Shown in pieces: positions 14,506-50,414 of a stretch of 64,000 nucleotides of DNA. Source of the stretch: an uncultured Candidatus Saccharibacteria bacterium (GTDB taxonomy: Bacteria > Patescibacteriota > CALEFQ01 > G965231055); contig OZ246411.1 in NCBI GenBank assembly GCA_965231055.1, forward strand, positions 473,875-537,874, in the 5' to 3' direction. Every line of letters starts with the position of its first letter. Position 1 is the first letter of the stretch. Position numbers and translations under genes: made by a program. Below the pieces are notes generated by a model. It saw only the letters and a list, made by a program, of their open reading frames with translations, did not search any database and was not told where the DNA came from.

Positions 14506-14515
14506 AAAATCTTCT

Positions 14516-15577: not shown

Positions 15578-15582
15578 AATAC

Positions 15583-16419: not shown

Positions 16420-16428
16420 TCATTTTTT

Positions 16429-17472: not shown

Positions 17473-17501
17473 TTTTTACACTTTAGTTTTTGTGAAAACA
17501 T

Positions 17502-18242: not shown

Positions 18243-18504
18243 CGAGATTTTAGGCCGGAGAAATTAGTCGAACTAGAAGTATTAGAGGTTTTAGTGGGCT
18301 AGGCTGTTATCGGCAATCAGCTTTCGGCTTTTAGCAATCGACTATTAGTTCTCGGATTTTTTGTGAGCATCAATGCTTAATATTTAATCCTCCTATTCAG
18401 GAGGTTTTGTTTTATGCTAAAATGGATATATGAAGATTGGCTATTAGTAGTGTCGTACCTTAAAAACTATACTTTAGTTACGCTTATCTAGAAAGGAGGA
18501 GGAG

Positions 18505-18930
18505 ATGTGGTGGCAACGTTTAATAGAGACTTATCATAATTTGTTCAATGTTAAGTTTGCAATCATTTCGGCTATATTTAATAGTGCGATTGTGGTTGCG
18601 GTTAATTGGTCGTATGGCCCCGCGGAATTCTTAATGGCTGGTCTCGCGCAAGCTATATCTAGCTTTTTATCAACTGGAGTAACTGCGCGGATAGTGCAGC
18701 ATTTCTCACCCATTAAGTCGGTATTCGTTTCATACTTTTTTGGGAGTCTGATTCCCGCTACGCTCACTTTTTTTATGAGCTTTGTGATTCACTGGTGGAA
18801 TAATACTCCTGAATTACTTATCAGCTGTATTTTACCTACAGCAATTAGTTATACTACTAGTTACATAACCAACTTCATTACTCGTAGTGGCTATATGCTA
18901 CCTAGCAACTATCGAAAAGTGAAAAATTGA
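18505..18930 (+). CDS. Hypothetical small integral membrane protein (about 4 TM segments)
   Basis: 141-aa hydrophobic ORF with a strong upstream RBS (AAAGGAGGAGG). Confidence 0.5.
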   Translation: MWWQRLIETYHNLFNVKFAIISAIFNSAIVVAVNWSYGPAEFLMAGLAQAISSFLSTGVTARIVQHFSPIKSVFVSYFFGSLIPATLTFFMSFVIHWWNNTPELLISCILPTAISYTTSYITNFITRSGYMLPSNYRKVKN

Positions 18931-19019
18931 ACCCGCGCTGTCGTTTTCTTATGACGGTGCGGGTCCTTACTCTAGAAAAGCAAGAATTACTTTATAGTTT
19001 ATCGCTTAATGCTTATTAT

Positions 19020-20090
19020 ATGATCCCAGTAATAATATGTGGTGGAGTGGGTACAAAGATGTGGCCCCTGAGTAGAAAATCAAATCCCAAGCATTTTCTT
19101 CCACTTATTGGGAAGAAGTCTTTGTTTGTGCTTAATTATGAAGCGTTGAGGAAGAGGTTCAAGCCAAGTGAAATTTATATTCAAACCAATGAGCTTCAAG
19201 CCAAGATAGCTCGAGCTCAGGTTCCCGAGATACCAAAAAAGAATTATTTTATAGAGCCAGATACGAAAAACCAAGGTCCTGCAATGGGTTTTGCCATGGC
19301 AAAGCTTTTCAAATTTGCTCCTGACGAACCATTTATAATTGTTCAGGCGGATGTGGTGAGAGAGCCGTCATCAAGTTTCATAGAGATGATTAATGAAGTA
19401 GAAAAAATAGTAAAACAAAAAAAGAAATTAGTTACCGGTGGATTTAGGTCTGAAAAAGCGGTGATGGGCGTAGATTATCTGATTCGAAGCAAAGAGTCTG
19501 TGGGTATGGGAAAAGTTACGCTATATAAAATGGAAAAATGGCTCGGACGTGATTCCAAAGAAAAGGTTAATAAATATGTTTCTGAGGGTAGAGCGTATCT
19601 CCACGCAAACCATTACGCATGGACTCCTAGGCTCATGCTAGGTGCATATAAAAAGCATATGCCTTCTTGGTATAACCCGCTTTCAAAAATGATTAATGCA
19701 ATTGGAAGTGCTAATGAAGAAAAGATCATAAAAAGCGAATACTCAAAAATGCCAGAAGGACCAGCCGAAAAAGTAACCACGAATGAATTGCAAAATGGCT
19801 ATATCGCAGAGCTCAATTTCAAGTGGACTGATTTTGGCACTTGGGAATCAGTTGATAATTATGTTGAAAACAAGAAAGGATTGGATAACAACAAATCAGT
19901 GTTATCAATTGATGGTAAAAACAACTATATCATTTCCTCCAAAAACAAATTTGTAGCAACTATCGGAGTTGATGACTTGGTTGTTATTGATACTGCCGAT
20001 GCTCTTTTGATTTGCAAGAAAGACCAAAGTGGAAATGTGGGGGAGGTAGTAAAACACCTTAAAGAAAACAAAAAGCATAAGCTTATTTAG
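19020..20090 (+). CDS. Sugar-phosphate nucleotidyltransferase, mannose-1-phosphate guanylyltransferase-like
   Basis: IICGGVGTKMWPLSR nucleotidyltransferase N-terminal motif. The tracked ORF (18927) is trimmed to the ATG at 19020. Confidence 0.75.
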   Translation: MIPVIICGGVGTKMWPLSRKSNPKHFLPLIGKKSLFVLNYEALRKRFKPSEIYIQTNELQAKIARAQVPEIPKKNYFIEPDTKNQGPAMGFAMAKLFKFAPDEPFIIVQADVVREPSSSFIEMINEVEKIVKQKKKLVTGGFRSEKAVMGVDYLIRSKESVGMGKVTLYKMEKWLGRDSKEKVNKYVSEGRAYLHANHYAWTPRLMLGAYKKHMPSWYNPLSKMINAIGSANEEKIIKSEYSKMPEGPAEKVTTNELQNGYIAELNFKWTDFGTWESVDNYVENKKGLDNNKSVLSIDGKNNYIISSKNKFVATIGVDDLVVIDTADALLICKKDQSGNVGEVVKHLKENKKHKLI

Positions 20091-20142
20091 TCGATTGACA
20101 GAAGTGAAAAAACTTACTAGTTTTATATCTTGTAACTAAAAC

Positions 20143-20592
20143 ATGAGACTACCAGAAAATCTATACAGTCAGGTTCTTAGATCAATGCCAGTTGTAGCTG
20201 TTGATGGCGTTTTGTTTTCAGAAAATAAATTGCTTTTGCTAAAACGAAAGGACGATCCTTTCAAGGGGAGCTGGGTATTACCGGGGGGTATGGTAAAATA
20301 TGGTGAGACTTTGGAAGAAGCAACCACTCGGGAATTTGAAGAAGAAACAAAGATAATAGTTAGGGTTCGTTCGCTTGTGAATGTATATTCTCAACCACAT
20401 AGAGACCCGAGGGGGCATATTGTTGCCATTGCATATCTATGCGAGCCGCTTGCTGGAAATATTGCAAACAGAATAGAGGAGAATCCTGGTCTCGAACTTT
20501 TTTCGCTGGACAAACTACCGAACAACATGGGGTTTGATCATAGAAAAATAATCGAGGATGCACTTAGAGTCAAAAAAACACTCGATATTTAG
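20143..20592 (+). CDS. NUDIX hydrolase
   Basis: Nudix box GGMVKYGETLEEATTREFEEETKI. It sits immediately downstream of the ManC-like gene. Confidence 0.85.
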   Translation: MRLPENLYSQVLRSMPVVAVDGVLFSENKLLLLKRKDDPFKGSWVLPGGMVKYGETLEEATTREFEEETKIIVRVRSLVNVYSQPHRDPRGHIVAIAYLCEPLAGNIANRIEENPGLELFSLDKLPNNMGFDHRKIIEDALRVKKTLDI

Positions 20593-20617
20593 TCTAAAAT
20601 TTTATATCCAAACAAAA

Positions 20618-21622
20618 ATGCAAAAAAATAAACTTATAAAGATATTGATTTTAGTAGTCGCTGTTTTTGTAGTTGTGATATTTGTGTCACTAGAAATGAA
20701 GGCGAAGACTGCGCAGTTTCCAGATTCAAAATCAGCTGTGGAATTTGAAATAGAAAAAAATCTCGGGCTTTCGGATATAGCATCTTCGTTAGTTGAAAAA
20801 GGTGTTCTCAAAAAAAGCAATAAAAATAGTTTCGTCTATTTCATTTTGACTAGGGGAATTAAGAGTGATCTCAAGGCAGGTAAGTATAGTATCAGTCCTT
20901 CTGTGTCTCCTGCGAGCATAGCTCAAAAAATAAGCTTGGGAGACTCTATCGATGACGTAAAAATCACATTCCCAGAAGGCATTACTTCCTCTGACATGGG
21001 AGTACTTCTTGAAGAAAGGGGAGTGGTGTCATCGGATAATTTTGAAAAAGCCTTAAACAATGATTGGTCATCTGATTTTTCGTGGATAGGGGATGTAGAA
21101 AGCATTGAGGGGTTTCTTTTTCCAGATACCTATATGTTCTATCTAAACTCAGACGCCGAAAGCGTGGTAAAGAAGATACTTCAAAACTTTGAGAGTAAAA
21201 TCGTTGATGAACTTTATGTAGATAGAGGGGTCAGCGAACTTTATGATGATTTGATTTTGGCGAGTATCGTCCAAAATGAGGTTTCAAAAACAGAAGATAT
21301 GAAATTGGTAGCGAGCATATTTATCAATCGATTAGAGATAGGCAAGGCTCTTGAATCGGATGCGACTGTGAATTTCGTGACTGGAAAAAATGCTCTTCAG
21401 CCTACTTATGACGATGTTGCTATCGATTCGCCCTATAATACTTATAAAAACACGGGGCTTCCTCCTGGTCCGATAGGAAATCCAGGTATTGAAGCTATGG
21501 GAGCGGTGATAAATCCTGAAGAAAGTGATTATTTGTTTTTCTTGAGCAAGGAAGATGGCGAGACGGTTTTTAGTAAGACATACGAAGAGCATATAAAAAA
21601 CAAGGGTATATATCTAGACTAA
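20618..21622 (+). CDS. mltG: Endolytic murein transglycosylase MltG (YceG family)
   Basis: N-terminal TM segment and the YceG signature region (...GLPPGPIGNPG...). The tracked ORF is trimmed to the ATG at 20618, after the upstream stop. Confidence 0.85.
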   Translation: MQKNKLIKILILVVAVFVVVIFVSLEMKAKTAQFPDSKSAVEFEIEKNLGLSDIASSLVEKGVLKKSNKNSFVYFILTRGIKSDLKAGKYSISPSVSPASIAQKISLGDSIDDVKITFPEGITSSDMGVLLEERGVVSSDNFEKALNNDWSSDFSWIGDVESIEGFLFPDTYMFYLNSDAESVVKKILQNFESKIVDELYVDRGVSELYDDLILASIVQNEVSKTEDMKLVASIFINRLEIGKALESDATVNFVTGKNALQPTYDDVAIDSPYNTYKNTGLPPGPIGNPGIEAMGAVINPEESDYLFFLSKEDGETVFSKTYEEHIKNKGIYLD

Positions 21623-32815: not shown

Positions 32816-34540
32816 TTGGAAAATAGTCTAATAGACAAAAGAATAAAGATTTTTCTCTGGCTCATAAGTTTTTTGGGAGCTATTGTTTTTATGCGCTTGG
32901 TGTCTTTGCAAATCCTTGATCACACCAAATACAAAGCTTTGGCTGAAGGGCAGCGAAGCTTTTTTGAATCGCTAGAACCAAAAAGAGGAGAGGTTGTAAC
33001 CAAGGATAGTAAAACTCAAGAGCTTTATCCTTTGGCGATGAATAAAGTGTATTTTCAAATCTATGTTGTTCCAAGGGAAGTAGAAAATCCTGATGAGGTA
33101 GCCAGGGTTGTTTCGCAGATTTTGGATATGGATATAAATGAAATTTATTCCAAAGTCACTAAAGATAAAGATGATCCTTATGAGCCAATCGCTGACAAGG
33201 TGGAAAAAGACAAAATTGATCAGATTGAATCTTCAAATCTCAAGGGTGTTCACTTCCAAGAAAAATATTTCAGAGCATATCCTGAAGGGTCGCTTGCATC
33301 TCATATTCTCGGGTATCTAGGTTATGACAATGAGGGAGTTCTCAGAGGATTTGGGGGAGTTGAAGCCTATTACAATTCAGAGCTTCAAGGGGAAAAGGGA
33401 GAAGTTGAGCTGGAGCGCGATGCTGCTGGGAGATGGATACCAATAGGATCAAAGGATGAAAAACCGGCGAAAGATGGAGATACTATAGTATTAACCATAG
33501 ATAGATCAGTTCAGGCTGTTCTTGAAAAAGAGCTAAGAACAATAATGGAAAAACTTACTCCCGATTCTGTGTCTGGAGTCTTTATGGAACCCAAGACTGG
33601 AAAAATCATAGCCATGTCAAATCTTCCAAATTATGATCCAAATAAATACAACGAGGTTGAAAACGTAAGTATTTTCAACAACAACGCTGTGTTTGATGTT
33701 TTTGAGCCAGGTTCTATTTTCAAACCATTCGTAGTTGCTTCGGCATTGGATCAGGGGGTTATTAATCCTGAAGACAAATTTAATGATTCTGGTGCGGTTA
33801 AAATAGGTTCATATACTATTAGAAATTCTGACAATAAAGGACACGGAGAAGTGAGTGTGGTTCAGGCACTTGATAAATCGCTCAATGTTGTTATGGTGGA
33901 GATAGCTAGAAAAGTCGGGATAGATAAACTCTATCCATATTACGAAAAATTTGGATTCAATTCCTATTCTGGAATTGATTTGCTTGGCGAGAATATAGCT
34001 GGTCTTGATGATAAGAAAAAATGGCAAGAATTGGATTTGGCAACTTCGAGCTTCGGTCAGGGTAAAATAGTGCTAAACGCCATGCAAATACTCAAGGCTT
34101 ATTCTTCATTTGCGAATGGTGGAGCCATGGTCAATCCTAGAATTGTAGAAAAATTTATACATCCAGATGGGACAGAAAGCGTGGTTGAAACCAAGTTTGA
34201 TTCTCAGCCAATATCTTCAAAAACAGCTACTACTATTAGCGCCATGCTTATTAGTAATGTTGAAAATGGATATTCTCATTACGCCAAAGTCAATGGATAT
34301 ACAATAGCTGGAAAAACCGGTACGGCTCAAATGCCAAATAAAGACAAGCCAGGATATGGAGGCGAGAAGCTTGTTTCTTTTGTGGGGTATGGTCCGGTAG
34401 AGGATCCTGAGGTGATAGCTATTATATGGGCAAAGAATCCAAAAGGAAGTTCTGTCTGGGGAGAAACCATAGCAGCTCCAGTATTTAGCAAGGTGGCTTC
34501 ATTTATTTTTCAAGATAGACAAATTATTCCCACAGAATGA
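32816..34540 (+). CDS. Penicillin-binding protein 2 / FtsI-type transpeptidase
   Basis: N-terminal TM segment, transpeptidase motifs SIFK (SxxK), SDN (SxN) and KTGTA (KTG). Confidence 0.88.
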   Translation: MENSLIDKRIKIFLWLISFLGAIVFMRLVSLQILDHTKYKALAEGQRSFFESLEPKRGEVVTKDSKTQELYPLAMNKVYFQIYVVPREVENPDEVARVVSQILDMDINEIYSKVTKDKDDPYEPIADKVEKDKIDQIESSNLKGVHFQEKYFRAYPEGSLASHILGYLGYDNEGVLRGFGGVEAYYNSELQGEKGEVELERDAAGRWIPIGSKDEKPAKDGDTIVLTIDRSVQAVLEKELRTIMEKLTPDSVSGVFMEPKTGKIIAMSNLPNYDPNKYNEVENVSIFNNNAVFDVFEPGSIFKPFVVASALDQGVINPEDKFNDSGAVKIGSYTIRNSDNKGHGEVSVVQALDKSLNVVMVEIARKVGIDKLYPYYEKFGFNSYSGIDLLGENIAGLDDKKKWQELDLATSSFGQGKIVLNAMQILKAYSSFANGGAMVNPRIVEKFIHPDGTESVVETKFDSQPISSKTATTISAMLISNVENGYSHYAKVNGYTIAGKTGTAQMPNKDKPGYGGEKLVSFVGYGPVEDPEVIAIIWAKNPKGSSVWGETIAAPVFSKVASFIFQDRQIIPTE

Positions 34541-35862
34541 ACATAAAAGTATTTCTAAGAAAATTAGTTGAGAGAATGCTTATGTCTCTCGCAAAATCAA
34601 TGCTTAAAAAACACAACCCAGATGTTGTGGGGATTACCGGGAGCGTTGGTAAGAGTAGTACTAAGGAAGCCGTGTACATGGTTTTGAGTTCAAGTAAATC
34701 CGTAAGAAAAAGTGAAAAAAACTACAACAATGAAATCGGATTACCTCTCACGATTCTTGGAATAGGAAGTGCTGGGTTCAATATTTTTGCTTGGATAATT
34801 AATCTGACAAAGGCATTGTTTTCAGTTTTGTTTTCCAAAAAATATCCTGAAATTTTGGTGCTGGAAATGGGTGCGGATAGGCCAGGAGATATAGGAGTGC
34901 TTTCTGCTGTCGCAAAACCAAATATAGGAATTATCACCTCAGTTGGGCCAAGCCATTTGGAATATTTTTCTGGTATAGATGAGATTGCAAGAGAAAAGGG
35001 AACTCTCATTGCAAATTTACCAAGAGATGGCTACGCTATTTTAAACAACGATGATCCGAGAGTCAGAATAATGCAAGATAGAACCAGAGCCAATGTGATC
35101 ACTTATGGTTTTTCTGGCGATGCTGATGTTTATGTGGATATTGATAAGCAAGCATATCTTTTGGATGCCGATAGGTGGATAGATGAAAAAGGTACCACTA
35201 AAAGCGGTATGAGTTTCAAGGTTTATTGCAGAGGAAATATTTTTCCAGTAAGGATGCCAAAGGTCGTGGGGATGCATTATATTTATGTCGCACTTGCTGC
35301 TATTAGTTGTGGAGTTGTTTTCAAGATGGATTTTGTGGATATAGAAAGAGCCTTGGTCAATTACAATCCTCCAGTGGGTAGAATGAATCTTGTAGGGGGA
35401 ATTAAACAAACTCTTATTATTGATGACACATATAATTCGGCTCCAGTATCTGCTATCGCAGCTATTGATTCTCTTGCCAAAATCAAAACTTCTGGTAGAA
35501 AAATTGCTGTGCTTGGAGATATGTTTGAACTAGGTGTGTTTTCAGAGAAAGGACATGAAGATGTGGGAGTAAAAGCTTCGGAGATCGTAGATATTCTGAT
35601 CACAGTAGGGCCTCTTTCAGAAAATACTCAATCAGCATTTATCAGGGGTAAGGGTAACTCGAGCACGACCACTTTTCATTTTAGAAATAGTGTTGAAGCT
35701 GGAAAAGCACTTCAGGATATTTTGAAAGAGAAGGATGTGGTGCTTGTCAAAGGTTCGCAGGGTATGAGAATGGAAAGGGTGGTCAAGGAAATCATGCTAG
35801 AACCACTAAGAGCCAAAGAACTTTTGGTGAGACAAGATTCGCGGTGGCTCAAGAAAAAATAG
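34537..35862 (+). CDS. murF: UDP-N-acetylmuramoyl-tripeptide--D-alanyl-D-alanine ligase
   Basis: Mur-ligase P-loop GITGSVGKSSTKE and the MurF-type C-terminus (DDTYNSAPVS...VLGDMFELG). Its start overlaps the ftsI stop. Confidence 0.8.
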   Translation: MNIKVFLRKLVERMLMSLAKSMLKKHNPDVVGITGSVGKSSTKEAVYMVLSSSKSVRKSEKNYNNEIGLPLTILGIGSAGFNIFAWIINLTKALFSVLFSKKYPEILVLEMGADRPGDIGVLSAVAKPNIGIITSVGPSHLEYFSGIDEIAREKGTLIANLPRDGYAILNNDDPRVRIMQDRTRANVITYGFSGDADVYVDIDKQAYLLDADRWIDEKGTTKSGMSFKVYCRGNIFPVRMPKVVGMHYIYVALAAISCGVVFKMDFVDIERALVNYNPPVGRMNLVGGIKQTLIIDDTYNSAPVSAIAAIDSLAKIKTSGRKIAVLGDMFELGVFSEKGHEDVGVKASEIVDILITVGPLSENTQSAFIRGKGNSSTTTFHFRNSVEAGKALQDILKEKDVVLVKGSQGMRMERVVKEIMLEPLRAKELLVRQDSRWLKKK

Positions 35863-36076
35863 ATTTTGTATATTGACTAACGTGCTTAGTATTGATAATG
35901 TTTCATTCTGTTAGTCCCGCCGCTGCGGGATCCCGCAACGGCGGGATGTTCGATATTCAGTATTCAATGTTCATTATGCTATAAGATTAAAACAAAACGT
36001 TGAGCTACGAAAATTTATTGATTGAAGCTCATATCTGAGCACTGAACACTGAAAACTGACTGCTGACACCTAATAA

Positions 36077-36154
36077 GGCGCTATCGTCTAGCCTGGCCTA
36101 GGACGCTAGGTTCTCATCCTAGTAACTCGGGTTCGAATCCCGATAGCGCTGCCA
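36077..36154 (+). tRNA. tRNA-Glu (anticodon CTC)
   Basis: Acceptor GGCGCTA/TAGCGCT with a G1-U72 wobble, anticodon stem CTAGG/CCTAG, loop TTCTCAT, T-arm GGTTCGAATCC, CCA encoded. Confidence 0.7.
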
Positions 36155-36190
36155 AATTTTTTTGTGGATAAAATAAGCTGAAAAACAAGT

Positions 36191-36217
36191 AAAAACCCCC
36201 GAGAGGGGGATTTTTTG
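36191..36217 (+). terminator. Rho-independent terminator after tRNA-Glu
   Basis: CCCCC-GAGA-GGGGG followed by TTTTTT. Confidence 0.7.
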
Positions 36218-36379
36218 TGCTTGTTTCAGCGCAAAAGCCGGTCAAAATAAATTGTTTCCCATGGGAAGCAGTTTTTCTGCGCTATGACATATCTTGGTGA
36301 ATCAAGCAATATCCATGTGGGACGTTTGAACTTCGCTTATGCAGCTTGCCGTGAGTCTTATTCGTGATATCATTTATTT

Positions 36380-36919
36380 ATGGAAAAATTCGACATAATT
36401 GACAAGGACGGAAATAAAACGGGAGAATCTATTCCTCGCGACAAAGTGCATCGCGAGGGGCTTTGGCATAAGAGCGTCCATGTTTGGATTATTAATGATA
36501 AAAACGAGCTCCTTCTTCAGAAGCGATCGCCGGAAAAAGATTCTCACCCCAATGAATGGGACATATCTACAGCCGGACATATTCATAGTGGAGAAACTCC
36601 AATTAATACCGCAATTCGTGAAGCCAAAGAAGAACTGGGCATAGACGTAAAAGAGAACGAGCTTGAAAAGCTTTGTACTCTCAAGAATCAAAGTGTCCAA
36701 CGAGATGGAAAATTTATAAATAATGAACTTGTGGATGTTTATCTCGTCAGAAAGAACCTTGATTTAAACAAGCTCACGCTTCAGCCGGAAGAAGTTTCAG
36801 AAGTTAAGTTGATACAATACAAAAATCTCCAGAGGATCATTGCCAGAGAAACTCCCGGCTATGTTTTGCACAAAGAAGAATGCGCGAAGTTATTTGAAGT
36901 TCTAGATAAACGCGTCTAA
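36380..36919 (+). CDS. NUDIX hydrolase
   Basis: Nudix box GHIHSGETPINTAIREAKEELGI. It is the first gene of the tRNA-Glu-adjacent island. Confidence 0.85.
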   Translation: MEKFDIIDKDGNKTGESIPRDKVHREGLWHKSVHVWIINDKNELLLQKRSPEKDSHPNEWDISTAGHIHSGETPINTAIREAKEELGIDVKENELEKLCTLKNQSVQRDGKFINNELVDVYLVRKNLDLNKLTLQPEEVSEVKLIQYKNLQRIIARETPGYVLHKEECAKLFEVLDKRV

Positions 36920-36922
36920 CGA

Positions 36923-37072
36923 CTACTTATTTGCATCTTCCCGATAGATGACCTTGAATAGCCTCAAGACTTTGGATGCAACTCTGTGCGCTTCTTCATC
37001 ATCCATCTCCGTGCCGTAGTCCTCGCGCATGATCTGTTTGAATTCCTCTAGCTTGTGCTTTGGAATTTCCAT
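36923..37072 (-). CDS. Possible small acidic protein (49 aa, MEIPKHKLEEFKQIMREDYGTEMDDEEAHRVASKVLRLFKVIYREDANK). Not in the ORF track.
   Basis: Hand-found ORF on the minus strand between the Nudix gene and the next gene. No homology could be assessed. Confidence 0.25.
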   Translation of the reverse strand: MEIPKHKLEEFKQIMREDYGTEMDDEEAHRVASKVLRLFKVIYREDANK

Positions 37073-37166
37073 ATTTGTCTATTTATTATCCAAGATGTGT
37101 GTATTTTAACGTACAGTCAAAAAACCAGCCAGTGGATTTAGTAAAAACTTTATTAAGGCAATAAAA

Positions 37167-37877
37167 ATGGTTGATGTTAAAACAATCAAAATACTGGACG
37201 AGGTTGGCGGTGATCGATTCGAAAAAGCTTACTATGATATTTTTCTTCAGAATGAATTTTCGAATTACGAGAAATTCTGGCAAAAATATGTAGTTCCTCT
37301 TACCAACAGGCCGGCAGACTTGAATTTACTGGATCCTGTTGAATTGAGTAAACGAGGAAACGATGACCGAGATGTATGTATCGCACAACTTCACTACACA
37401 GTCTTAATGCATCTCATCCGCGTTTATAACATTAGACAAATAAAAACTCTAAATCTGGACGAATTCACGGAAGGCATTGTCAGATTGTCAGCTTCAACGG
37501 ATGTTGCAGATGAGCTTCTTGGACGAATGACATCGAAAGAAAAATATGACCCCTGGAATGAAGAACATGAAAAAGATTCTAGGCGAGACTGGCGAAAAGC
37601 CGGAAACGATCAGCTCCAATGGTTAAGAGATTATAGAAATAGGCAACTACACAGCATGGTTGCGCCATCGATAATCATTTATGGGAGTTACGAGCGACTT
37701 CGCGTTCCTAGATTTCGAAAGGAAAAAAAATATATGGATTGGCGTAATGTTACAAGTGTATCCATCGGTAGCGGGGGTATAGTAAGGAACGACTACGATT
37801 CGCCAAATAATTTAATTAATCACGCTTGGTCAGAAGTCCTCAAATATCTCAATGACCAGTGGGCAAAAGTTATATGA
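37167..37877 (+). CDS. Hypothetical protein, first gene of an overlapping pair. It contains an Rx4H motif (RNRQLH) that could indicate a HEPN-like fold.
   Basis: 236-aa ORF. Its stop overlaps the next gene's start in an ATGA arrangement. The short motif match alone is weak. Confidence 0.5.
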   Translation: MVDVKTIKILDEVGGDRFEKAYYDIFLQNEFSNYEKFWQKYVVPLTNRPADLNLLDPVELSKRGNDDRDVCIAQLHYTVLMHLIRVYNIRQIKTLNLDEFTEGIVRLSASTDVADELLGRMTSKEKYDPWNEEHEKDSRRDWRKAGNDQLQWLRDYRNRQLHSMVAPSIIIYGSYERLRVPRFRKEKKYMDWRNVTSVSIGSGGIVRNDYDSPNNLINHAWSEVLKYLNDQWAKVI

Positions 37878-38425
37878 TTATAAAAATTTATTGGAGGTGT
37901 AATAGTCTAGAAAGAGAAGTTTATGTTATAAAAAAAGAATGGGGATACGTCTCTGGTTTCGTGTACCCCATTATGCTGACGGATATTAAACATTTTCTAC
38001 CTCATTGGACTTATCACGGGGAATCAGGAAGGCCACCAGTAATACACCACAAGTCGTTTACTGGAAAAGAGATAGAGTTTATGACATTAAAAGCCGACTA
38101 TTTAAGAAAGTTTTCTGAATTTAATAATACGGTGATACATTCAACGCCTTCGTATGGCGCCAGTTTCCAAATTTTAGGGTGGGCCAATAATACAAAGGAT
38201 TATCCAGCTCATTACGACAGAAAAATCGTTTTTGATATCGATCTGTGTGATGCGAATCAGACTAGATATGTTCACATTCTTCTGCTGGATCGAAACTCGA
38301 AACAGCTAAAGGAAAAATGTGCAGATCTCGTCGGCAAGCATTATGAACTGATATCCTACGAGGTAATAGATGACGGTAATCAGCCGAACATTATGATATT
38401 ATTTACAGCAAATAAATCGATTTAA
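37874..38425 (+). CDS. Hypothetical protein, second gene of the overlapping pair
   Basis: ORF translationally coupled by the ATGA overlap at 37874-37877. The tracked ORF begins at 37859; the start is chosen at the ATG at 37874. No recognisable domain. Confidence 0.45.
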   Translation: MIIKIYWRCNSLEREVYVIKKEWGYVSGFVYPIMLTDIKHFLPHWTYHGESGRPPVIHHKSFTGKEIEFMTLKADYLRKFSEFNNTVIHSTPSYGASFQILGWANNTKDYPAHYDRKIVFDIDLCDANQTRYVHILLLDRNSKQLKEKCADLVGKHYELISYEVIDDGNQPNIMILFTANKSI

Positions 38426-38459
38426 ATGAAGTTTAGAAAAAAGTCTAGAGACTTAAATA

Positions 38460-38984
38460 TTGAAGAAAAATATGGCTCTGAGTAGAAAAATTGTGAAATT
38501 GGTTGAATACAATCCTGAGTGGCCAGGTTTTTTTAAGACGGAAGCTCGAAAACTTGGAAAGATTTTGAAATTGGATCGCTCAAGAATCGAACACGTCGGT
38601 AGCACTGCAATACCAGGTATGTCGGCGAAATCGGTTATAGATATTGCAGTTGGCGTCAGCTCAGTAGGTGAATTTGGCAAATATCAAGAGATGCTCAAAA
38701 AAGCCGGATATGTACTTCGTCCAAATGCGGGCTCGACTGGCAGGCAGTTCTATGCCAAGGGAGCAGAGAATTCTAGGACCCATTATGTACATCTAGTCGA
38801 ATACAAGAACGGTGAATGGGAAAACCTAATAAAATTTAGAGATTATCTAATCAAGAATCCTGACAAGGCGCAGGAATATGCAACGCTCAAGCAGGAGCTT
38901 GCCGATAAGTATCCCAATGACAGAGATTCATATAAGAGAGGTAAGGAGGAATTTATTGCAAAAATATTGGTTATGTCTAAATAA
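38460..38984 (+). CDS. GrpB-family protein (UPF0157, nucleotidyltransferase fold)
   Basis: LVEYNPEWPGFF...IEHVGSTAIPGMSAKSVIDIAV...HYVHLVEY, the GrpB signature. Confidence 0.75.
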   Translation: MKKNMALSRKIVKLVEYNPEWPGFFKTEARKLGKILKLDRSRIEHVGSTAIPGMSAKSVIDIAVGVSSVGEFGKYQEMLKKAGYVLRPNAGSTGRQFYAKGAENSRTHYVHLVEYKNGEWENLIKFRDYLIKNPDKAQEYATLKQELADKYPNDRDSYKRGKEEFIAKILVMSK

Positions 38985-39117
38985 CTATCCACAGAAACAC
39001 TTCTCTCCAGAAACAACCAAGATTGTGTAGTTCCTTGAATATGCCATTATTATTTTTATAATTAGTGATATATGAAATACTCAAGAAGAAAATTAAATAA
39101 AAAAGAGTGTATAAAAA

Positions 39118-40464
39118 ATGCTAATCGCATCGGTTAACTTAAATAAAAGACTGGGGAATTTAAAATCCAGGAATAAAGCTCACAATTGGATGTTGAGCGG
39201 CGATTTTGGAATTGTGGTAGCCCAAGAACCTTGGCGAAAATCATCAGATTTTAATGGGATGTTTGATGAGTTTAAACCCATCGGTGGGAATGAAAAAGTA
39301 TTTGCTTGGATTGACTCTAACTATGAAATACCAAGCCAAAAGCTTATAAAAGAATATTTGCAGCGGATAGAGCTTGATTATGTGATTATTTATAATGTTT
39401 ATTTGGATGCTTATAAGCAATCAAAAAGAGCTGAGCAGATAAGCGAGATAAAGAAATGTGCCATGCATGAAGGAAATAGACCGATACTTATCGTTGGTGA
39501 TTTTAATCTTGCGCCAAATCCAAAGGACGGCTTGTTTAATGGGAAATCAAGCGCCTTTAATTCTGAAATCGATAGGAAACCCTTTAGGGATTTGCTAACT
39601 AAATGCAAATTAAATGACTCCACAGCTGATTTTTCAAAAGAAAAATTCACGATAGAAAAATGCATTCACGGCAAGACATCTAAATTCAGGTGTGATTTGG
39701 CTTTGGTTTCTGACTATCTGTTGGATGATATTTCTGTTTCCTATGATCACTCTATTAGGATAGGTGGTGGCGCTTTTACTGATCATTCGGCGATAAGGCT
39801 AAATGCTCCCGTGAGTCTTCCAGGGTCACTCAATAAAACTGGATTGCTTTTTTCGACGAAGAATGAGCAGGGGAATAAATTTGAAAATGATTACGGCGCT
39901 CCATGCTGCTCTTATAAAACAGCTATGTCACGAAAATCGGAATCTCCGATAGCACGTTTTGTGCACGAGGAGCTGAGTAGTAGCTTGAAAATAGCGTCAA
40001 TTTTGGACTATGGATGTGGAAGAGGCGTAGATGTAGGATATTATTTAAAAAATGGCTATCAATGCGATGGTTATGATCCGCATGAGCTTTTTGGCTTCAG
40101 CATCTTGCCAAATAAGCAATATGATTTGATTACTATAATATTTGTGTTGAACGTACTTCCCGATCCATTTCAAAGACTTCAAGTCTTGGAAAAAGCAGCA
40201 AAGTATATGAAAGATGACGGCATGATGTTGGTGGTTTGTCGTTCTCCTAAAGAAATAGCCAGCGAAGTCTCTAAAAAATGCTGGATAAAACATAATGATG
40301 GATTTTGGTCGCACCAAGGTAGGAAAACTTTTCAAAAAGGAATCTCTCGTGAAGAAATTATTAGGCTTGCGAAAAGAGTAAACCTAGTTCCTTATGACCT
40401 AAGCGAAAGCATTAAATATCCGAATAATGCCTCTTTCCTTATATTGAAAAACAAAATCCATTAA
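39118..40464 (+). CDS. Fusion protein: N-terminal endonuclease/exonuclease/phosphatase (EEP) domain plus C-terminal class-I SAM-dependent methyltransferase domain
   Basis: EEP motifs (VVAQEPW; ILIVGDFNLAPN; FTDHSAIRLN) are followed by MTase motif I (ILDYGCGRGVDVGYY) and a post-I acidic motif (DLITIIFVLNVL). Confidence 0.7.
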   Translation: MLIASVNLNKRLGNLKSRNKAHNWMLSGDFGIVVAQEPWRKSSDFNGMFDEFKPIGGNEKVFAWIDSNYEIPSQKLIKEYLQRIELDYVIIYNVYLDAYKQSKRAEQISEIKKCAMHEGNRPILIVGDFNLAPNPKDGLFNGKSSAFNSEIDRKPFRDLLTKCKLNDSTADFSKEKFTIEKCIHGKTSKFRCDLALVSDYLLDDISVSYDHSIRIGGGAFTDHSAIRLNAPVSLPGSLNKTGLLFSTKNEQGNKFENDYGAPCCSYKTAMSRKSESPIARFVHEELSSSLKIASILDYGCGRGVDVGYYLKNGYQCDGYDPHELFGFSILPNKQYDLITIIFVLNVLPDPFQRLQVLEKAAKYMKDDGMMLVVCRSPKEIASEVSKKCWIKHNDGFWSHQGRKTFQKGISREEIIRLAKRVNLVPYDLSESIKYPNNASFLILKNKIH

Positions 40465-40712
40465 ACTTCTGATCTTGACTTTGATCAGGTCACAGATTGT
40501 ACAGATCAACTAGGGTGCTATTATATACACAGAACTTAAGTGGTTACTGCGGACTAATTTTCTAAAGGCCATGTTGGAACATGGAAATCACCATCCAATT
40601 CGCAAAAAAAGGTTCCGATTGTGTCCGCCGCCTTTGGCGGGGCAGGCTACTGTGGCCTGCCACAAAAGCATTCAGTATTCAGTTGTTAGTGTTAAGCGAT
40701 AAGCATATAAAT

Positions 40713-40735
40713 ACCCGCGAAAGCGGGTTTTTGTT
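40713..40735 (+). terminator. Rho-independent terminator
   Basis: CCCGC-GAAA-GCGGG followed by TTTTTG. Two further GC-rich hairpins precede it (40625-40662). Confidence 0.65.
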
Positions 40736-40781
40736 TACATTGGCAAATAATTTCTGTTTTTGGTATTATTAGCTTTGTCTT

Positions 40782-41867
40782 ATGAAAAACAAAGAAAAAA
40801 ATATATCTGTATTCTGGATAGTAAAAAAGCTAATCACACTCAATAAAAAGGGTGTTTTTAGATATTTATTTAGAGCATGGAGAGTTATTTTCAATATTCC
40901 CGTCGCGTATTTCCGCAGAAAAGCCAATGCAAGGAATGGGCTAGAAGTTTCAAAGGGGGTAGGTATTAGCCCCACCTCAAGATGCAATTATAGTTGCAAG
41001 GGATGCTACGCGAGATTTAATATTGACGAAAAAGAATTGGATACTAGTGTTTTTGATAGATTTCTTTTTGAAGCTGAAAAAGAAGGAGTTATATTTGTTG
41101 TGGTGAGCGGGGGAGAACCTTTCGCTAAACCCGACATGATTGATTTGTTTGAGAGACATAGAAAGATGTTTTTTCTCGTGATAACGAATGGTAGTTATCT
41201 AAATAAAAAACTCATTATGCGGATTCGGAAATCTGCAAATGTAGTTGTTGTCGTGAGCGTGGAAGGAGATAAAAATCAGACTGATTTTAGAAGGGGATCG
41301 GGTGCATATGAAACTTCCTTAAACGCGATGAGGTTACTTCGTTTGTCAGATGTTCCTTTTGGTTTTTCTGTGACCCTGACTAGGCGCAATATTTCTATGT
41401 TTCAAGAATATTCGTTTATAGGTAAAATGATTGATGAAGGGGCTTTACTTGGTTTTTTCAATACGCTAGTTCCTTTTTCAAAAGAAGACATAGAATTTGT
41501 TCCCGACAAAGAAGATCTAATAAAGTTTACTGAGAACATAAATAATATTAGAAAAAAGCGTTCTATTGCTATCATGCATCTACCTGACGATGAATATATT
41601 GGGTACGAAAAATGTTTATTTGTAAATGGAGGCGCTTTTCATGTAAATTCCCAGGGATATGTGGAACCGTGTCCTTTTGCTCATTTTGCTGTTGAAAATA
41701 TATCAAAAAGCTCATTCAAGGATGTCCTTAGGTCTCCTTTTTTGAAAGCGATACGAGAAGATGATAAGCTATTGAAGAAGGGGGAGCTTGGATGCTCTTT
41801 AGTTAGCCATTATGAAGAATTAAATAAATTAGCTATAAAATATGGAGCCAAAATCACAAAAAACTAA
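40782..41867 (+). CDS. Radical SAM enzyme with a C-terminal SPASM/twitch-type auxiliary Cys motif
   Basis: CX3CX2C (SPTSRCNYSCKGCYA), GGEP motif (VVSGGEPF), and a C-terminal CLFVNGGAFHVNSQGYVEPCPF...GCSL pattern typical of SPASM/twitch domains. Confidence 0.78.
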   Translation: MKNKEKNISVFWIVKKLITLNKKGVFRYLFRAWRVIFNIPVAYFRRKANARNGLEVSKGVGISPTSRCNYSCKGCYARFNIDEKELDTSVFDRFLFEAEKEGVIFVVVSGGEPFAKPDMIDLFERHRKMFFLVITNGSYLNKKLIMRIRKSANVVVVVSVEGDKNQTDFRRGSGAYETSLNAMRLLRLSDVPFGFSVTLTRRNISMFQEYSFIGKMIDEGALLGFFNTLVPFSKEDIEFVPDKEDLIKFTENINNIRKKRSIAIMHLPDDEYIGYEKCLFVNGGAFHVNSQGYVEPCPFAHFAVENISKSSFKDVLRSPFLKAIREDDKLLKKGELGCSLVSHYEELNKLAIKYGAKITKN

Positions 41868-42786
41868 TACCGTTGAACTTTTGCATAGACACGATGACGC
41901 CACATCAAATTTTATAATAGAGTATTTGAAAAATGATGATGGGTTTATTGAACTAGCAAAAAAAGAAACAGCTCGCATATTGAAACGAGACCAGGATGAT
42001 CTCGAAAAGCTTGAAAAAGGAATACAGTATTCAATAAAAAGAGGAATCTTAAGGAGTGATATCTCGATTCCCTCTGCCAAAAAAGTTTTTGTGGAAAATA
42101 AAAATTCAGATGAAGTGGCTGATGAAATACTTTCTCAGGTTGCGGGGAATGCTGATGTTGGGGGAGTTTTGGTGGCTATAGATGGGCTATCTGGAACTGG
42201 CAAGGGTACTACCGTAAAAAAACTTCTCAAGAAAATGCCAAATAGTCTACCATGGTCAAACGGGGATGTTTTTAGGAGTCTCACTTATTTTGTTGTGAAC
42301 TATCTTAATTCACACAAAATTAATTTTAGCGAAAAAGAATTAGCTCCTGATTTAATGAAAGAGGCAGTTGGAAAAATTGCCTTTGAAGAAAATAAAAACG
42401 GATTTGATTTGTTTGTGATTGGAGATAATAAAAAAGAAAGAGTCGCTGACATAAGGGATACAAGACTCAAAGAGCCAAGAGTAGCAGAAAGAATTCCTAT
42501 GATTTCATGTCTCACTCAGGGTGAAGTAATAAATTTTACTAACGACGCCGTTTCAAAACTTAAAAATCATGGAAAAAATATAATTATTGAAGGTAGGAGA
42601 GTGACACTACGATATCTTGATACCCAAAATAGATTTGAGCTTTCTATTTCTGACAAAAATGTATTGGGTCAAAGAAGGGCTGCTCAGAGAATTTCAGCAA
42701 TGGCAATGGATCTACTTAATTTGGGGAGCGTCTCCCAATCAGCATTAATAAATGAAGCGCTCAATAAAATAATTAAAGAAGACTAA
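41842..42786 (+). CDS. Cytidylate-kinase-like P-loop NMP kinase with an N-terminal extension of about 110 aa
   Basis: Walker A LVAIDGLSGTGKGTT, a Cmk-like IIEGRRVTL (compare DGRDIGT), and a C-terminal LGQRRAAQR. It overlaps the radical-SAM gene by 26 nt in another frame. Confidence 0.6.
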   Translation: MEPKSQKTNTVELLHRHDDATSNFIIEYLKNDDGFIELAKKETARILKRDQDDLEKLEKGIQYSIKRGILRSDISIPSAKKVFVENKNSDEVADEILSQVAGNADVGGVLVAIDGLSGTGKGTTVKKLLKKMPNSLPWSNGDVFRSLTYFVVNYLNSHKINFSEKELAPDLMKEAVGKIAFEENKNGFDLFVIGDNKKERVADIRDTRLKEPRVAERIPMISCLTQGEVINFTNDAVSKLKNHGKNIIIEGRRVTLRYLDTQNRFELSISDKNVLGQRRAAQRISAMAMDLLNLGSVSQSALINEALNKIIKED

Positions 42787-43794
42787 ATGAAGAAAATACA
42801 TTTTATTATTATTGGATTGCTTGCTCTCGGGATTGTTTTGGTTTGGATTTTGATGCCTGAAAAGAAAGAGAAAATAACTGAAACCAAGAATGCGGAAGTA
42901 GTTGAGGAAGAAGTGGAAGATGTAGAAAAACCAAAGGAGCCCATAAGCTTAATTGCCGTGGGGGATGTGATGCTTTCTAGGCACGTTTGGACCAAAATAA
43001 AACAATCTGGTGATATGGCACTTCCTTTTAGGGAAACTCATGAAATCACCTCCATGGCTGATGTTAGTTTTGCGAACCTAGAAACTTCAGTTTCCACAAT
43101 GCAAGAGCCTCCTAGTGAAGGTATGAGCTTCATGGCAGATCCTAGGTCGCTTGAAGGGCTAAAACTTGGCGGGTTTGATGTGATTTCATTGGCAAACAAT
43201 CATTCACATAATTTTGGAGACCAGGCGCTACTTGATACTATAGAAATCGTAAATGAAAATGGCTTCAAAACGATAGGAGCAGGTAAGGATTACGATGATG
43301 CGAACAAGCCTCTTATTTATGAGGTGAAAAACCAGAAAATAGCATTTTTTGCATATGAAGATGTGGTTCCTGATTCTTATGCTTCCGGAGTGGGTGATCC
43401 AGGAGTTGCGTGGATGGATACGGAAGTTATGAAGAAAAATGTTTCAGCTTTGAAAAAAGCAAATTTGGTTGATTACATTATTGTGTCTATGCATTCGGGT
43501 GTTGAATATGTGAAAACTCCCAATGATATTCAGGTTAAGTTTGCTCGTTCGGCAATAGATGCTGGTGCCAATCTAGTTATGGGGCATCATCCTCATGTAA
43601 CTCAAACCAAGGAAACTTATAAAAATGGATATATAATATATAGTCTTGGAAATTTTGTTTTTGATCAAATGTGGTCAGAGGAAACTAGGATGGGAGAAAT
43701 ATTTAAATGCACATTGGATAACGGAGAGATAAAAGACATTGAATTTATGAAAACCAAAATATACGACTACAATCAACCAAGAGTGGAAAACTAA
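42787..43794 (+). CDS. CapA/PGA_cap-family metallophosphoesterase, membrane-anchored
   Basis: N-terminal TM segment, then LIAVGDVMLSRHV...FANLETS...SLANNHSHNFG...GHHPH metallophosphatase motifs. Its start abuts the upstream stop (TAAATG). Confidence 0.75.
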   Translation: MKKIHFIIIGLLALGIVLVWILMPEKKEKITETKNAEVVEEEVEDVEKPKEPISLIAVGDVMLSRHVWTKIKQSGDMALPFRETHEITSMADVSFANLETSVSTMQEPPSEGMSFMADPRSLEGLKLGGFDVISLANNHSHNFGDQALLDTIEIVNENGFKTIGAGKDYDDANKPLIYEVKNQKIAFFAYEDVVPDSYASGVGDPGVAWMDTEVMKKNVSALKKANLVDYIIVSMHSGVEYVKTPNDIQVKFARSAIDAGANLVMGHHPHVTQTKETYKNGYIIYSLGNFVFDQMWSEETRMGEIFKCTLDNGEIKDIEFMKTKIYDYNQPRVEN

Positions 43795-43862
43795 TTTTCT
43801 TGCATTCTTTTTTGGACTTCTGTATAATTCAACTTCCGCTTAAAAATAATAAAATAAAATTT

Positions 43863-44180
43863 ATGGCAACAAAAATAACAGATGCTGAGTTTGAGGAAAA
43901 AGTAATTAAATCAAATAAGCCAGTTTTAGTGGATTTTTTCGCAGAATGGTGTGGTCCATGCAAGATGATGGGTCCTGTGATAGATGAACTTGCCAAAGAA
44001 TACGAAGGCAAAGTTGATATATACAAGATAGATACAGATCAAAATCCCGAGACAGCTCAGAAATTCGGTATTATGAGCATTCCAACATTGATAATCTTTC
44101 AAAACGGAGAAGTAAAAGAACAACTTATGGGAGCTCAAGCCAAAGAAATGCTCAAATCCAAACTAGACGAACTTAACTAA
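43863..44180 (+). CDS. trxA: Thioredoxin
   Basis: WCGPC active site and the thioredoxin fold. The tracked ORF is trimmed to the ATG at 43863. Confidence 0.9.
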   Translation: MATKITDAEFEEKVIKSNKPVLVDFFAEWCGPCKMMGPVIDELAKEYEGKVDIYKIDTDQNPETAQKFGIMSIPTLIIFQNGEVKEQLMGAQAKEMLKSKLDELN

Positions 44181-44190
44181 TACTCAAACT

Positions 44191-44220
44191 AAAACCCCTG
44201 CAATTCGCAGGGGTTTTTTG
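44191..44220. terminator. Bidirectional rho-independent terminator at the 3' boundary of the island
   Basis: AAAACCCCTGC-AATTC-GCAGGGGTTTTTT. Confidence 0.8.
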
Positions 44221-44234
44221 TTATCGTTATTTTT

Positions 44235-50155: not shown

Positions 50156-50414
50156 TTTTAATAGACTTTCTGTTTTGATCTAGTCTAACTAACAACTTAT
50201 CGTAAGATATTTGATTTTAAACTAAACAAAACTTAATTAAATTAACTGTGCGTAGTGTACTGCATAATAGCTTTTTTGTCAAATATACGGAGTTTTCAGC
50301 ACTCAGTATTCAGTTTTTAAAGACCCAAAGACTGATGCATATAGTGAATACTGAAAACTGATTGCTGAGTGCCTAGTGCTGACAACTAGGTGTTGATTTG
50401 ATATACTTTTACCT

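Follow-up and report, generated by a model that had tools for sequence, protein, structure and literature searches.

A mosaic gene block downstream of tRNA-Glu(CTC) in a Parcubacteria-like genome, with a putatively acquired left half and a native-looking right half

The 8-kb block that follows the tRNA-Glu(CTC) gene in the 64-kb stretch of DNA analysed here (the window) had been predicted to be an integrated island. On a narrow balance of the evidence, we favor a different explanation: the block is a mosaic made up of four or more transcription units, with an acquired patch in its left half and a native operon in its right half, and not one integrase-borne island. It lies downstream of a junction of the Mur ligase and tRNA-Glu(CTC) genes whose conservation is ancient. 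The host has a small genome of the Patescibacteria (Parcubacteria-like), a group in which both genomic islands and defence genes spread by horizontal transfer have been reported to be common (PMC12455944).

The tRNA-Glu gene (36077–36154; ARAGORN, 55 bits with Rfam) and a terminator-like hairpin of five G-C pairs followed by a T-run (36196–36209) directly precede the block, as the original prediction had stated. Unless noted otherwise, features described here lie on the forward strand. At the right end, where the thioredoxin and lipoprotein genes converge, the gap holds a hairpin of 11 pairs (six G-C) with a T-run after it (44191–44217). This element had been described as a strong bidirectional terminator; the strong hairpin and T-run are present, but the scan called a terminator on the forward strand only and the reverse-strand tail has just four T residues. 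A third terminator (40713–40728), absent from the original prediction, divides the block in two. It lies in a 318-nt spacer (40465–40781) that forms the boundary of the two halves, contains G+C-rich hairpins as well as a promoter-like site (40740–40769), and matched no Rfam family at threshold. Promoter-like sites precede the Nudix, EEP-methyltransferase and radical SAM genes. We conclude that the block comprises four or more transcription units whose contents are unrelated and that a single module is not supported.

Profile matches and motifs bore out the previously reported gene inventory and its coordinates. The first gene (36380–36919) encodes a Nudix hydrolase of the IDI/YfcD-like clade (Pfam NUDIX, 5.5e-19) with an intact Nudix box (G66x5Ex7REAKEELGI). 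The IDI catalytic cysteine is substituted in this protein (STAGH), and its score against the NCBIfam IDI model (75 bits) is under the cut-off of 127. The 49-aa acidic helical ORF on the reverse strand (36923–37072) is convergent with the Nudix gene and divergent from the gene that follows; gene calling on the independent Logan assembly likewise recovered it, and it had no match in NCBIfam, PADLOC or PHROGs.

The next two genes (37167–37877 and 37874–38425) encode the pair of proteins previously listed as unknown, and the reported ATGA overlap between them was verified. The first protein (236 aa) is a HEPN-fold protein of a new family without a Pfam model, and we predict that it is an RNase effector. 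Across this small and sporadic family the RNx3H and Ex3R motifs are invariant or nearly so, in agreement with published HEPN motif definitions (PMC3710099), and some members have subthreshold matches to the Pfam HEPN_RiboL-PSP and HEPN_AbiU2 models. The protein thus shares its helical fold, an R-N-x3-H motif in which the R is followed by a polar residue, and the Ex3R motif with HEPN toxins and abortive-infection effectors such as HEPN-MNT, LsoA/RnlA, AbiU2, RiboL-PSP-HEPN and the PrrC-type proteins of R-M operons (PMC3710099). It differs in having extra elements beyond the core domain and in being unmatched by Pfam, NCBIfam and PADLOC models; PADLOC made a confident defence assignment for none of the block's proteins. 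Its β-rich partner (183 aa) matched no known fold, is neither an MNT nucleotidyltransferase nor a known antitoxin fold, and is represented by only eight clusters among 1.84 billion representatives. The translationally coupled two-gene arrangement resembles that of HEPN toxin systems, and one homologue of the HEPN protein is embedded in a type I R-M operon between hsdS and hsdR. In contrast to those systems, the partner was missing from both other HEPN contexts examined, so the pairing may not be conserved.

The left half continues with a GrpB-family protein of nucleotidyltransferase fold (38460–38984; Pfam GrpB, 1.2e-49; phrog_24971, 6.9e-37) and ends with a fusion of an EEP nuclease/phosphatase to a SAM methyltransferase (EEP-MT; 39118–40464) in which the QE, GDFN, DH and GxGxG motifs are intact. 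Its full-length architecture is common to more than 100 proteins, with homologues of 39–48% identity in Acidobacteriota, Streptomyces, Micromonospora and Streptomyces plasmids. Elsewhere the gene is part of a conserved cassette, as on Streptomyces plasmid pSMg1-2. The cassette is absent here: its LysR-like, DCD-like, HIT-like and ~300-aa proteins, along with a cysteine desulfurase and a MazG-like protein, do not accompany the window copy. EEP-MT is a solo (orphan) member of a fusion family that has been transferred widely. The methyltransferase domain at its C-terminus is similar to TIGR04096, a DNA phosphorothioation-associated putative methyltransferase, over the first ~140 positions of the model (4.2e-15), but its 55.5 bits fall short of the cut-off of 150.

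Relatives of the left-half genes are patchy and cross-phylum. In the Logan assembly of the same strain, whose contigs are 100% identical to the window, breaks occur at 36143/36197, 39053–39081 and 40574–40598, so that the EEP-MT gene forms a separate 1546-bp contig with breaks on both sides while the right half shares one contig with hrcA-grpE-dnaK; such breaks in a de Bruijn assembly may stem from coverage or shared k-mers and not from strain variation.

Composition also distinguishes the two halves. The block as a whole had been called slightly GC-shifted, but its G+C content (0.376 compared to 0.379 for the rest of the window), GC3 (p = 0.28, indistinguishable), codon usage and 4-mer content are typical, and the block ranks 20th among 112 size-matched windows. 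The shift was confined to the five left-hand genes, where GC3 is 0.370 compared to 0.331 elsewhere (p = 0.009, for a post-hoc split) and 0.300 in the right half. Similarly, 4-mer deviation reached z = 2.3–2.4 for 35–40 kb and was −0.6 to −1.35 for windows spanning 39–46 kb; a larger deviation (z = 3.05) was found at 53–57 kb. The left-half signal is small and comes from a post-hoc split, and the right half (40.8–44.2 kb) is compositionally native.

The right-hand operon begins with a gene for a radical SAM enzyme (40782–41867; Radical_SAM, 4.8e-17; SPASM, 2e-06, 28.4 bits). The protein has a C68x3C72x2C75 core and, because only three C-terminal cysteines are present (Cys278, Cys297 and Cys338), its partial SPASM C-terminal domain is twitch-like. 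Homologues share at most 47% identity (Aminicenantes, Spirochaetes and others), and the genes stand alone in other phyla. The start of the following gene (41842–42786) overlaps its end by 26 nt. The encoded CMP-kinase-like P-loop kinase is divergent, with a 105-aa N-terminal extension; it exceeds the Pfam Cytidylate_kin cut-off narrowly (27.8 bits, cut-off 26), falls below that of TIGR00017 (32.8 bits, cut-off 135.55) and has a motif-level match to the Cmk structure 3r8c.

This pair resembles the coupling of prokaryotic viperins (pVips) to adjacent nucleotide kinases. Were it a viperin-like antiviral module, the kinase, which keeps Cmk-like motifs, would supply a nucleoside triphosphate from which the radical SAM enzyme makes a chain-terminating analogue. 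The overlap of the two genes fits this reading, as do matches of the radical SAM core to PADLOC pVip models (7.8e-15 and 8.5e-12) and to NCBIfam viperin_w_prok (4.5e-12). However, these matches are confined to the generic radical SAM core (residues 65–188, corresponding to positions 9–131 of 281 in NF038283), the score of 45.7 bits is below the viperin cut-off of 180, and the enzyme belongs to the SPASM/twitch group, whose families score up to 75 bits, and carries Cys278, Cys297 and Cys338 at its C-terminus. Moreover, the kinase neighbour is missing in three homologues with 43–46% identity, so linkage is not conserved, and a search for viral or phage relatives found none. We consider a viperin-like function very improbable.

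The remaining two genes of the native-looking operon encode a CapA/PGA_cap metallophosphoesterase-fold protein (42787–43794) and a thioredoxin (43863–44180, the real start being 43863). The former has a strong full-length PGA_cap match (Pfam, 1.1e-70) and, as read from sequence, an N-terminal membrane anchor or signal sequence; such an anchor is also present in poly-gamma-glutamate CapA, which belongs to the same family as the MslH epimerase. No capB, capC or capE genes lie nearby, and the protein scores 80 bits against the MslH model NF038314 (cut-off 700). The thioredoxin (WCGPC; TIGR01068, 134.5 bits, cut-off 96.8) is probably a housekeeping protein ancestral to the neighbourhood and not accessory, because, of the 72 related loci with at least 6 kb of downstream sequence, 25 have a thioredoxin gene downstream of Mur/tRNA-Glu.

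None of these 72 loci carries any of the eight genes from Nudix to CapA downstream of the junction, and in a comparison of 73 gene orders, those of the window and the 72 loci, each of the eight occurs only once. In 33 Moranbacteria-like loci the distance between Mur and the conserved anchor varies from 86 bp to 5.9 kb, which fits the mosaic reading. The junction itself is ancient: in 68 of 142 related loci, tRNA-Glu(CTC) is found no more than 2.5 kb downstream of the Mur ligase gene. Could the entire content be vertical and lineage-specific, the differences reflecting deep divergence and ordinary rearrangement with nothing accessory? The block shows no overall compositional shift, and the nearest sampled relatives share only 42–49% identity in the Mur ligase, a distance at which gene order is rearranged. 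For example, the TrxB-isoprenoid cluster follows tRNA-Glu in relatives and lies at 13.5–21.6 kb here. Plain housekeeping genes fill the interval between tRNA-Glu and HrcA in another lineage (L059), which shows ordinary rearrangement at such distances. Insertion and rearrangement therefore cannot be told apart by what relatives lack, and synteny is weak evidence here. Against purely vertical descent, the full-length identity of EEP-MT to chromosomal and plasmid genes of Actinomycetota is hard to square with CPR inheritance, the family of the HEPN protein is tiny and sporadic, as is that of its partner, GC3 and 4-mer deviation are raised in the left half, and the independent assembly is broken on both sides of EEP-MT. 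This explanation is possible but not probable.

A classic integrative island, in which a tyrosine or serine recombinase would have inserted the whole block as one element into the 3′ end of tRNA-Glu, is improbable. The block does resemble tRNA-linked genomic islands (PMC12455944) in its position immediately after the tRNA and terminator, its accessory-type content shared with none of the related loci, and its defence-like left-half genes, and in one lineage (L005/L085/L086) HrcA-GrpE-DnaK directly follows Mur. That lineage also lacks the tRNA and hence is not an empty att site; with a best Mur ligase identity of 49% in the collections searched, such a site is not demonstrable. As originally noted, no integrase or recombinase was found among genes scanned from 24.2 to 55.3 kb, no integrase lies within ~7 kb upstream or 11 kb downstream of the block, and no att-like repeat of tRNA-Glu is present anywhere in the 64-kb window; the longest match elsewhere spans 13 nt and falls in the T-loop of other tRNAs. 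The block also differs from such islands in lacking a clear compositional signature, in comprising several unrelated transcription units, and in having a native-looking right half whose thioredoxin recurs at the same locus in relatives. The island prediction is thus only partly supported: the content unlike relatives, the patchy homologues and the left-half deviation speak for it, and the lack of an integrase, an att repeat and a whole-block shift speaks against it. The tRNA-Glu gene is an ancient companion of the Mur ligase gene upstream of it rather than an established integration site.

Beyond the original prediction, our analysis adds a HEPN-type predicted RNase, its extremely rare partner, the recognition of EEP-MT as an orphan copy of a cassette gene, and the division of the block into two halves. 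In the mosaic that we favor, the left half (~36.2–40.6 kb) would most likely be an accreted patch of defence-like and nucleotide-handling genes, for which we infer a horizontal origin. The HEPN protein may act as an RNase toxin or abortive-infection effector that the co-translated 183-aa partner would keep inactive or control, by analogy with HEPN toxin-antitoxin pairs and with HEPN genes inside R-M operons. The right half would be a native operon in which a radical SAM/twitch enzyme, a divergent CMP-kinase-like kinase, a membrane-anchored CapA-like metallophosphoesterase and a housekeeping thioredoxin may function together, the likeliest guess being a small-molecule or envelope modification step.

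The gene content beside tRNA-Glu was confirmed: Pfam and NCBIfam scans showed that the gene list of the original prediction was correct at the stated coordinates. The window has a low GC content of ~37% and is a Patescibacteria/Parcubacteria-like genome segment; its Mur ligase was best matched by MAGs of Parcubacteria, Moranbacteria and other Patescibacteria. The genes 5' of the block are lexA, dinB, mraZ, a small gene of 119 codons, ftsI and the Mur ligase gene. As had been claimed, tRNA-Glu(CTC) (36077–36154) and a terminator-like hairpin (36196–36209) directly precede the block genes. These start with a Nudix gene (36380–36919, forward strand) and a 49-aa ORF (36923–37072, reverse strand), followed on the forward strand by two genes annotated as unknown, the first encoding what we describe below as a HEPN protein (37167–37877) and the second its partner (37874–38425), for which the predicted ATGA overlap was verified. 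Next on the same strand are genes for GrpB (38460–38984), an EEP and SAM-methyltransferase fusion (EEP-MT, 39118–40464), a radical SAM enzyme with a SPASM/twitch-type C-terminus (40782–41867), a CMP-kinase-like protein (41842–42786), a CapA/PGA_cap protein (42787–43794) and thioredoxin (43863–44180). The strong terminator said to close the block is a hairpin at 44191–44217, 3' of the thioredoxin gene, beyond which lie lipoprotein and membrane protein genes, both on the reverse strand, and then hrcA-grpE-dnaK. A third terminator, absent from the original prediction, was found at 40713–40728 within a 318-nt spacer and splits the block into two halves. As an RNA element, this spacer matched no Rfam family at threshold. 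G+C-rich palindromes or hairpins were also seen in AT-rich spacers 5' of tRNA-Glu (35915–35946) and 5' of the radical SAM operon (40625–40665); neither matched an Rfam family.

The block had been interpreted as a tRNA-adjacent island, although no integrase or att duplication was visible. This absence was borne out, as Pfam and NCBIfam scans identified no integrase or recombinase among the genes from 24.2 to 55.3 kb, and blastn-short and exact k-mer searches of the 64-kb window identified neither a partial copy of tRNA-Glu nor an att direct repeat. The partial 3' repeat of tRNA-Glu envisaged near 44.2 kb was thus not found; the longest matches elsewhere in the window were 13-nt T-loop identities inside other tRNAs. 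We conclude that a classic integrase-mediated island is unlikely.

Short repeated motifs were observed around the tRNA. The 19-nt motif ACTGAAAACTGAYTGCTGA lies 10 nt 5' of tRNA-Glu (36048–36066) and also occurs as an inverted pair 5' of the DUF2229/HGD-D operon (50296–50314, reverse strand, and 50350–50368), giving three matches where 0.07 were expected. A related 12-mer, ATTCAGTATTCA (five matches, 0.68 expected), is present 5' of both tRNA-Glu (35955–35966) and the radical SAM operon (40670–40681). These motifs may represent a common operator or promoter element. Duplication of the regions upstream of tRNA-Glu and the radical SAM gene was rejected because their likeness is confined to the 12-mer.

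Relatives of the locus were sought with the Mur ligase in species-representative genome and JGI metagenome collections. Identity of the relatives was only 42–49%, and the only identical sequences were Logan contigs of the same strain. tRNA-Glu(CTC) was located at most 2.5 kb downstream of the Mur ligase gene in 68 of 142 Parcubacteria-type loci (34537–36154 in the window; loci L006–L164 among the relatives). Such stability is unusual given how scrambled these genomes are otherwise. The Mur–tRNA-Glu junction is old rather than a recent integration target. Given the age of the junction and the native look of half the block, adjacency to the tRNA is weak evidence for an island.

The block was absent from all 72 related loci with at least 6 kb of downstream sequence, at a distance at which synteny is scrambled, and the eight window genes from Nudix to CapA were singletons among 73 gene orders (the window and the 72 related loci). 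The genes that follow the tRNA in ~30 Moranbacteria-like loci encode, in order, polyprenyl synthase, IspG (in about one-third of the loci), UppS, a DsbD-like protein, thioredoxin, TrxB, malic enzyme, UPF0047, PCMT and YceG. Thioredoxin of the block belongs to a cluster present at the Mur/tRNA-Glu locus in 25 relatives. The TrxB, polyprenyl synthase, IspG, UppS and YceG cluster is found in the window at 13.5–21.6 kb (13582–21622), indicating large rearrangements between lineages; in this genome it follows a cluster of six tRNAs ~20 kb upstream, apart from the thioredoxin gene. This change in position of TrxB and the isoprenoid genes makes thioredoxin ambiguous as a fixed synteny anchor. In three loci (L005, L085 and L086) HrcA-GrpE-DnaK directly follows the Mur ligase, whereas in two others (L059 and L031) the distance from the tRNA to HrcA is ~9 kb, the annotated interval in L059 consisting of housekeeping genes (RmuC, L21, RecR, DnaB, CysS and CorA). 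Synteny gives weak evidence of an insertion: the block was missing from every relative and Mur ligase can adjoin HrcA, but the three loci with this arrangement lack the tRNA and gene order is rearranged. Among 33 loci with a conserved anchor, spacing from the Mur ligase to the anchor ranged from 86 bp to 5.9 kb, with zero to three unique small ORFs 3' of the tRNA; the junction is mildly variable, with small payloads. An IS200-like Y1 transposase-family gene was observed within 10 kb downstream of the Mur ligase gene in six relatives (L059, 11537–12232; cluster 18 in L026, L042, L070, L143 and L144), and was the first gene after it in L059 and L026; none was present in the window. The low identity of the closest Mur ligases precluded a true empty-site comparison. 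With no close relative available, purely vertical inheritance of the block is still a serious rival explanation.

The codon usage of the block had been described as slightly GC-shifted. Compared with the other 51 genes of the window, the nine block genes were similar in GC (0.376 versus 0.379), GC3 (0.339 versus 0.331, p = 0.28) and codon-usage chi-square per codon (0.235 versus 0.237), and the tetranucleotide distance of the 8-kb block ranked 20 among 112 size-matched windows. The shift held only for the five left-hand genes, with a GC3 of 0.370 versus 0.331 (Mann–Whitney p = 0.009, for a post-hoc split); GC3 of the four right-hand genes was 0.300 (p = 0.22). Similarly, 4-mer deviation in 4-kb windows over 35–40 kb was the second-largest in the window (z = 2.3–2.4; the maximum, z = 3.05, was at 53–57 kb), but windows over 39–46 kb were below average (z = −0.6 to −1.35). 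The two halves differ, the left showing a small deviation that is not seen for the block as a whole.

Logan contigs from SRR10912416, an independent assembly of the identical strain, were 100% identical to the window, with ends or starts at 36143, 36197, 39053–39081 and 40574–40598. A break at the tRNA is to be expected from the sharing of tRNA k-mers. The EEP-MT gene formed its own 1546-bp contig, and both breaks flanking it fall in unique AT-rich spacers, suggesting, although not proving, graph branching caused by strain variation; the contig ends may reflect presence or absence at the strain level. The right half was contained on a single contig with hrcA-grpE-dnaK and the genes beyond.

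The HEPN protein (236 aa) has homologues in ~40 clusters, none with a Pfam domain, and a four-helix up-down HEPN fold was found for it. HEPN motifs are defined as Rx4-6H with a polar residue after R, plus Ex3[KR] (PMC3710099), and the protein contains both. Across 28 aligned sequences, YRNxLxHGR holds R157 and H162, which never vary, and N158, which is conserved in at least 90%, while DVADELLxR contains an invariant R120, E116 conserved in at least 90% and a conserved D112; a QLH triad occupies positions 74–76. A few family members gave subthreshold matches to HEPN_RiboL-PSP and HEPN_AbiU2. One homologue (49% identity) is encoded between hsdS and hsdR of a type I restriction-modification operon on three contigs, and restriction-modification operons are among the commonest contexts of defensive HEPN genes (PMC3710099). 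Another follows a gene for a 409-aa unannotated protein. Unlike HEPN-MNT toxin–antitoxin pairs, the HEPN gene in the window has no adjacent minimal nucleotidyltransferase antitoxin. The partner (183 aa), which was not found beside two other HEPN homologues examined, is represented by only eight clusters among 1.84 billion representatives; it has a conserved HWTYH motif and a confident, mostly beta predicted model (pLDDT 85). A tentative reading, to which we give rather less than even weight, is that the pair at 37167–38425 would be an as yet undescribed module of two genes with an immune or toxin role, in a strain-variable defence patch of an ultra-small Patescibacteria genome, consisting of a predicted new HEPN RNase family, found elsewhere within type I restriction-modification operons, and a rare partner of unknown fold.

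The EEP-MT protein retains the EEP motifs QE, GDFN and DH and a GxGxG SAM motif. The methyltransferase domain is similar to TIGR04096 over the first ~140 positions of that model (55.5 bits versus a cut-off of 150). Full-length homologues with 39–48% identity were found in Acidobacteriota, Streptomyces, Micromonospora, Pseudonocardiaceae and on Streptomyces plasmids. At three loci (L168, 2399–8679; L176, 2400–8712; L170, 3584–8332), on a Streptomyces chromosome, plasmid pSMg1-2 and a metagenome contig, the gene is part of a cassette in which genes for ~300-aa, HIT-like and DCD-like proteins are divergent from a LysR-like gene followed by EEP-MT. These partners are conserved among the three loci, and the two Streptomyces cassettes also contain a cysteine desulfurase gene and a MazG-like gene. 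The cassette on the metagenome contig adjoins resolvase, HerA/Mad8-like and helicase-MTase genes. PADLOC does not include the cassette, which may represent a modification or defence system not yet described. BLASTP identified none of its partners in the window, and so, in contrast to pSMg1-2 and L170, where the LysR-like, DCD-like, HIT-like and ~300-aa genes are co-located, the window carries an orphan copy.

The right-hand genes are tightly packed, with a 26-nt overlap between the radical SAM and kinase genes, no gap between the kinase and CapA genes and 68 nt before the thioredoxin gene. The radical SAM protein contains C68x3C72x2C75 and matched SPASM at 28.4 bits (cut-off 21.5). This CX3CX2C motif, together with a Cys-containing C-terminal auxiliary domain, places it among SPASM/twitch enzymes; the presence of only three C-terminal Cys residues (278, 297 and 338) makes the domain twitch-like and not a complete 7-Cys SPASM. 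Its best curated matches were SPASM/twitch families, all far under their cut-offs, and its homologues are at most 47% identical, the named ones coming from Aminicenantes, Spirochaetes and other phyla. In the three homologue contexts examined, neither a kinase nor a CapA gene adjoins the radical SAM gene. The Cmk P-loop, a TGxxxR-like motif and the EGR motif are preserved in the kinase, which is extended by 105 aa at its N-terminus; it scored 32.8 bits against the Cmk equivalog TIGR00017, below the cut-off of 135.55, and just passed at the Pfam family level (27.8 versus 26). CapA has an N-terminal membrane anchor. Thioredoxin scored 134.5 bits against TIGR01068 (cut-off 96.8), with WCGPC from residue 29.

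Several other identities were considered and rejected. A viperin reading of the radical SAM and kinase genes fails, as the match to NF038283/PADLOC pVip was 45.7 bits (cut-off 180) over model positions 9–131 of 281 only, and the context is not conserved among radical SAM homologues. A RiPP cluster, with a SPASM maturase, an MslH-like CapA and the kinase, was set aside because the sole candidate precursor ORF (40581–40772) spans the terminator hairpin, CapA is membrane-anchored and its MslH match was 80 bits (cut-off 700). The Nudix protein might have been an isopentenyl-diphosphate isomerase left over from the isoprenoid genes clustered in relatives, but its catalytic Cys is replaced and its score was under the cut-off. 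A phage or plasmid origin of the block was likewise rejected, since no IMG/VR relatives were found for the HEPN family, EEP-MT or the radical SAM enzyme and no phage match for the kinase; GrpB excepted, PHROGs gave generic matches only.

The best-supported interpretation is that the block is a mosaic. The left half (~4.4 kb) would plausibly have arisen by accretion of horizontally acquired genes, including a HEPN-based toxin- or abortive-infection-like pair and an orphan modification/nuclease fusion, whereas the right half would be a native operon for an unknown product with a housekeeping thioredoxin gene at its end. The island interpretation is thus partly supported: the left half deviates and was plausibly acquired, but no integrase was found among the genes from 24.2 to 55.3 kb and no att repeat in the window, and the right half looks native.

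The result is mainly corrective of the original island claim. As horizontal transfer, genomic islands and transferred defence genes have already been documented in Patescibacteria (PMC12455944), the phenomenon itself is known, and both the accessory patch and the HEPN family belong to known kinds. What is new is that an unannotated family has been placed in the HEPN superfamily and that its rare partner, likewise unannotated, has been described; assigning a fold and catalytic motifs to this family of ~40 clusters gives it a testable function. Patescibacteria have tiny genomes and are thought to be poor in classical defence systems. If the accreted patch with its new HEPN family is real, it would show how such reduced genomes can still draw on the pool of mobile defence genes when no mobile-element machinery is recognisable in them.
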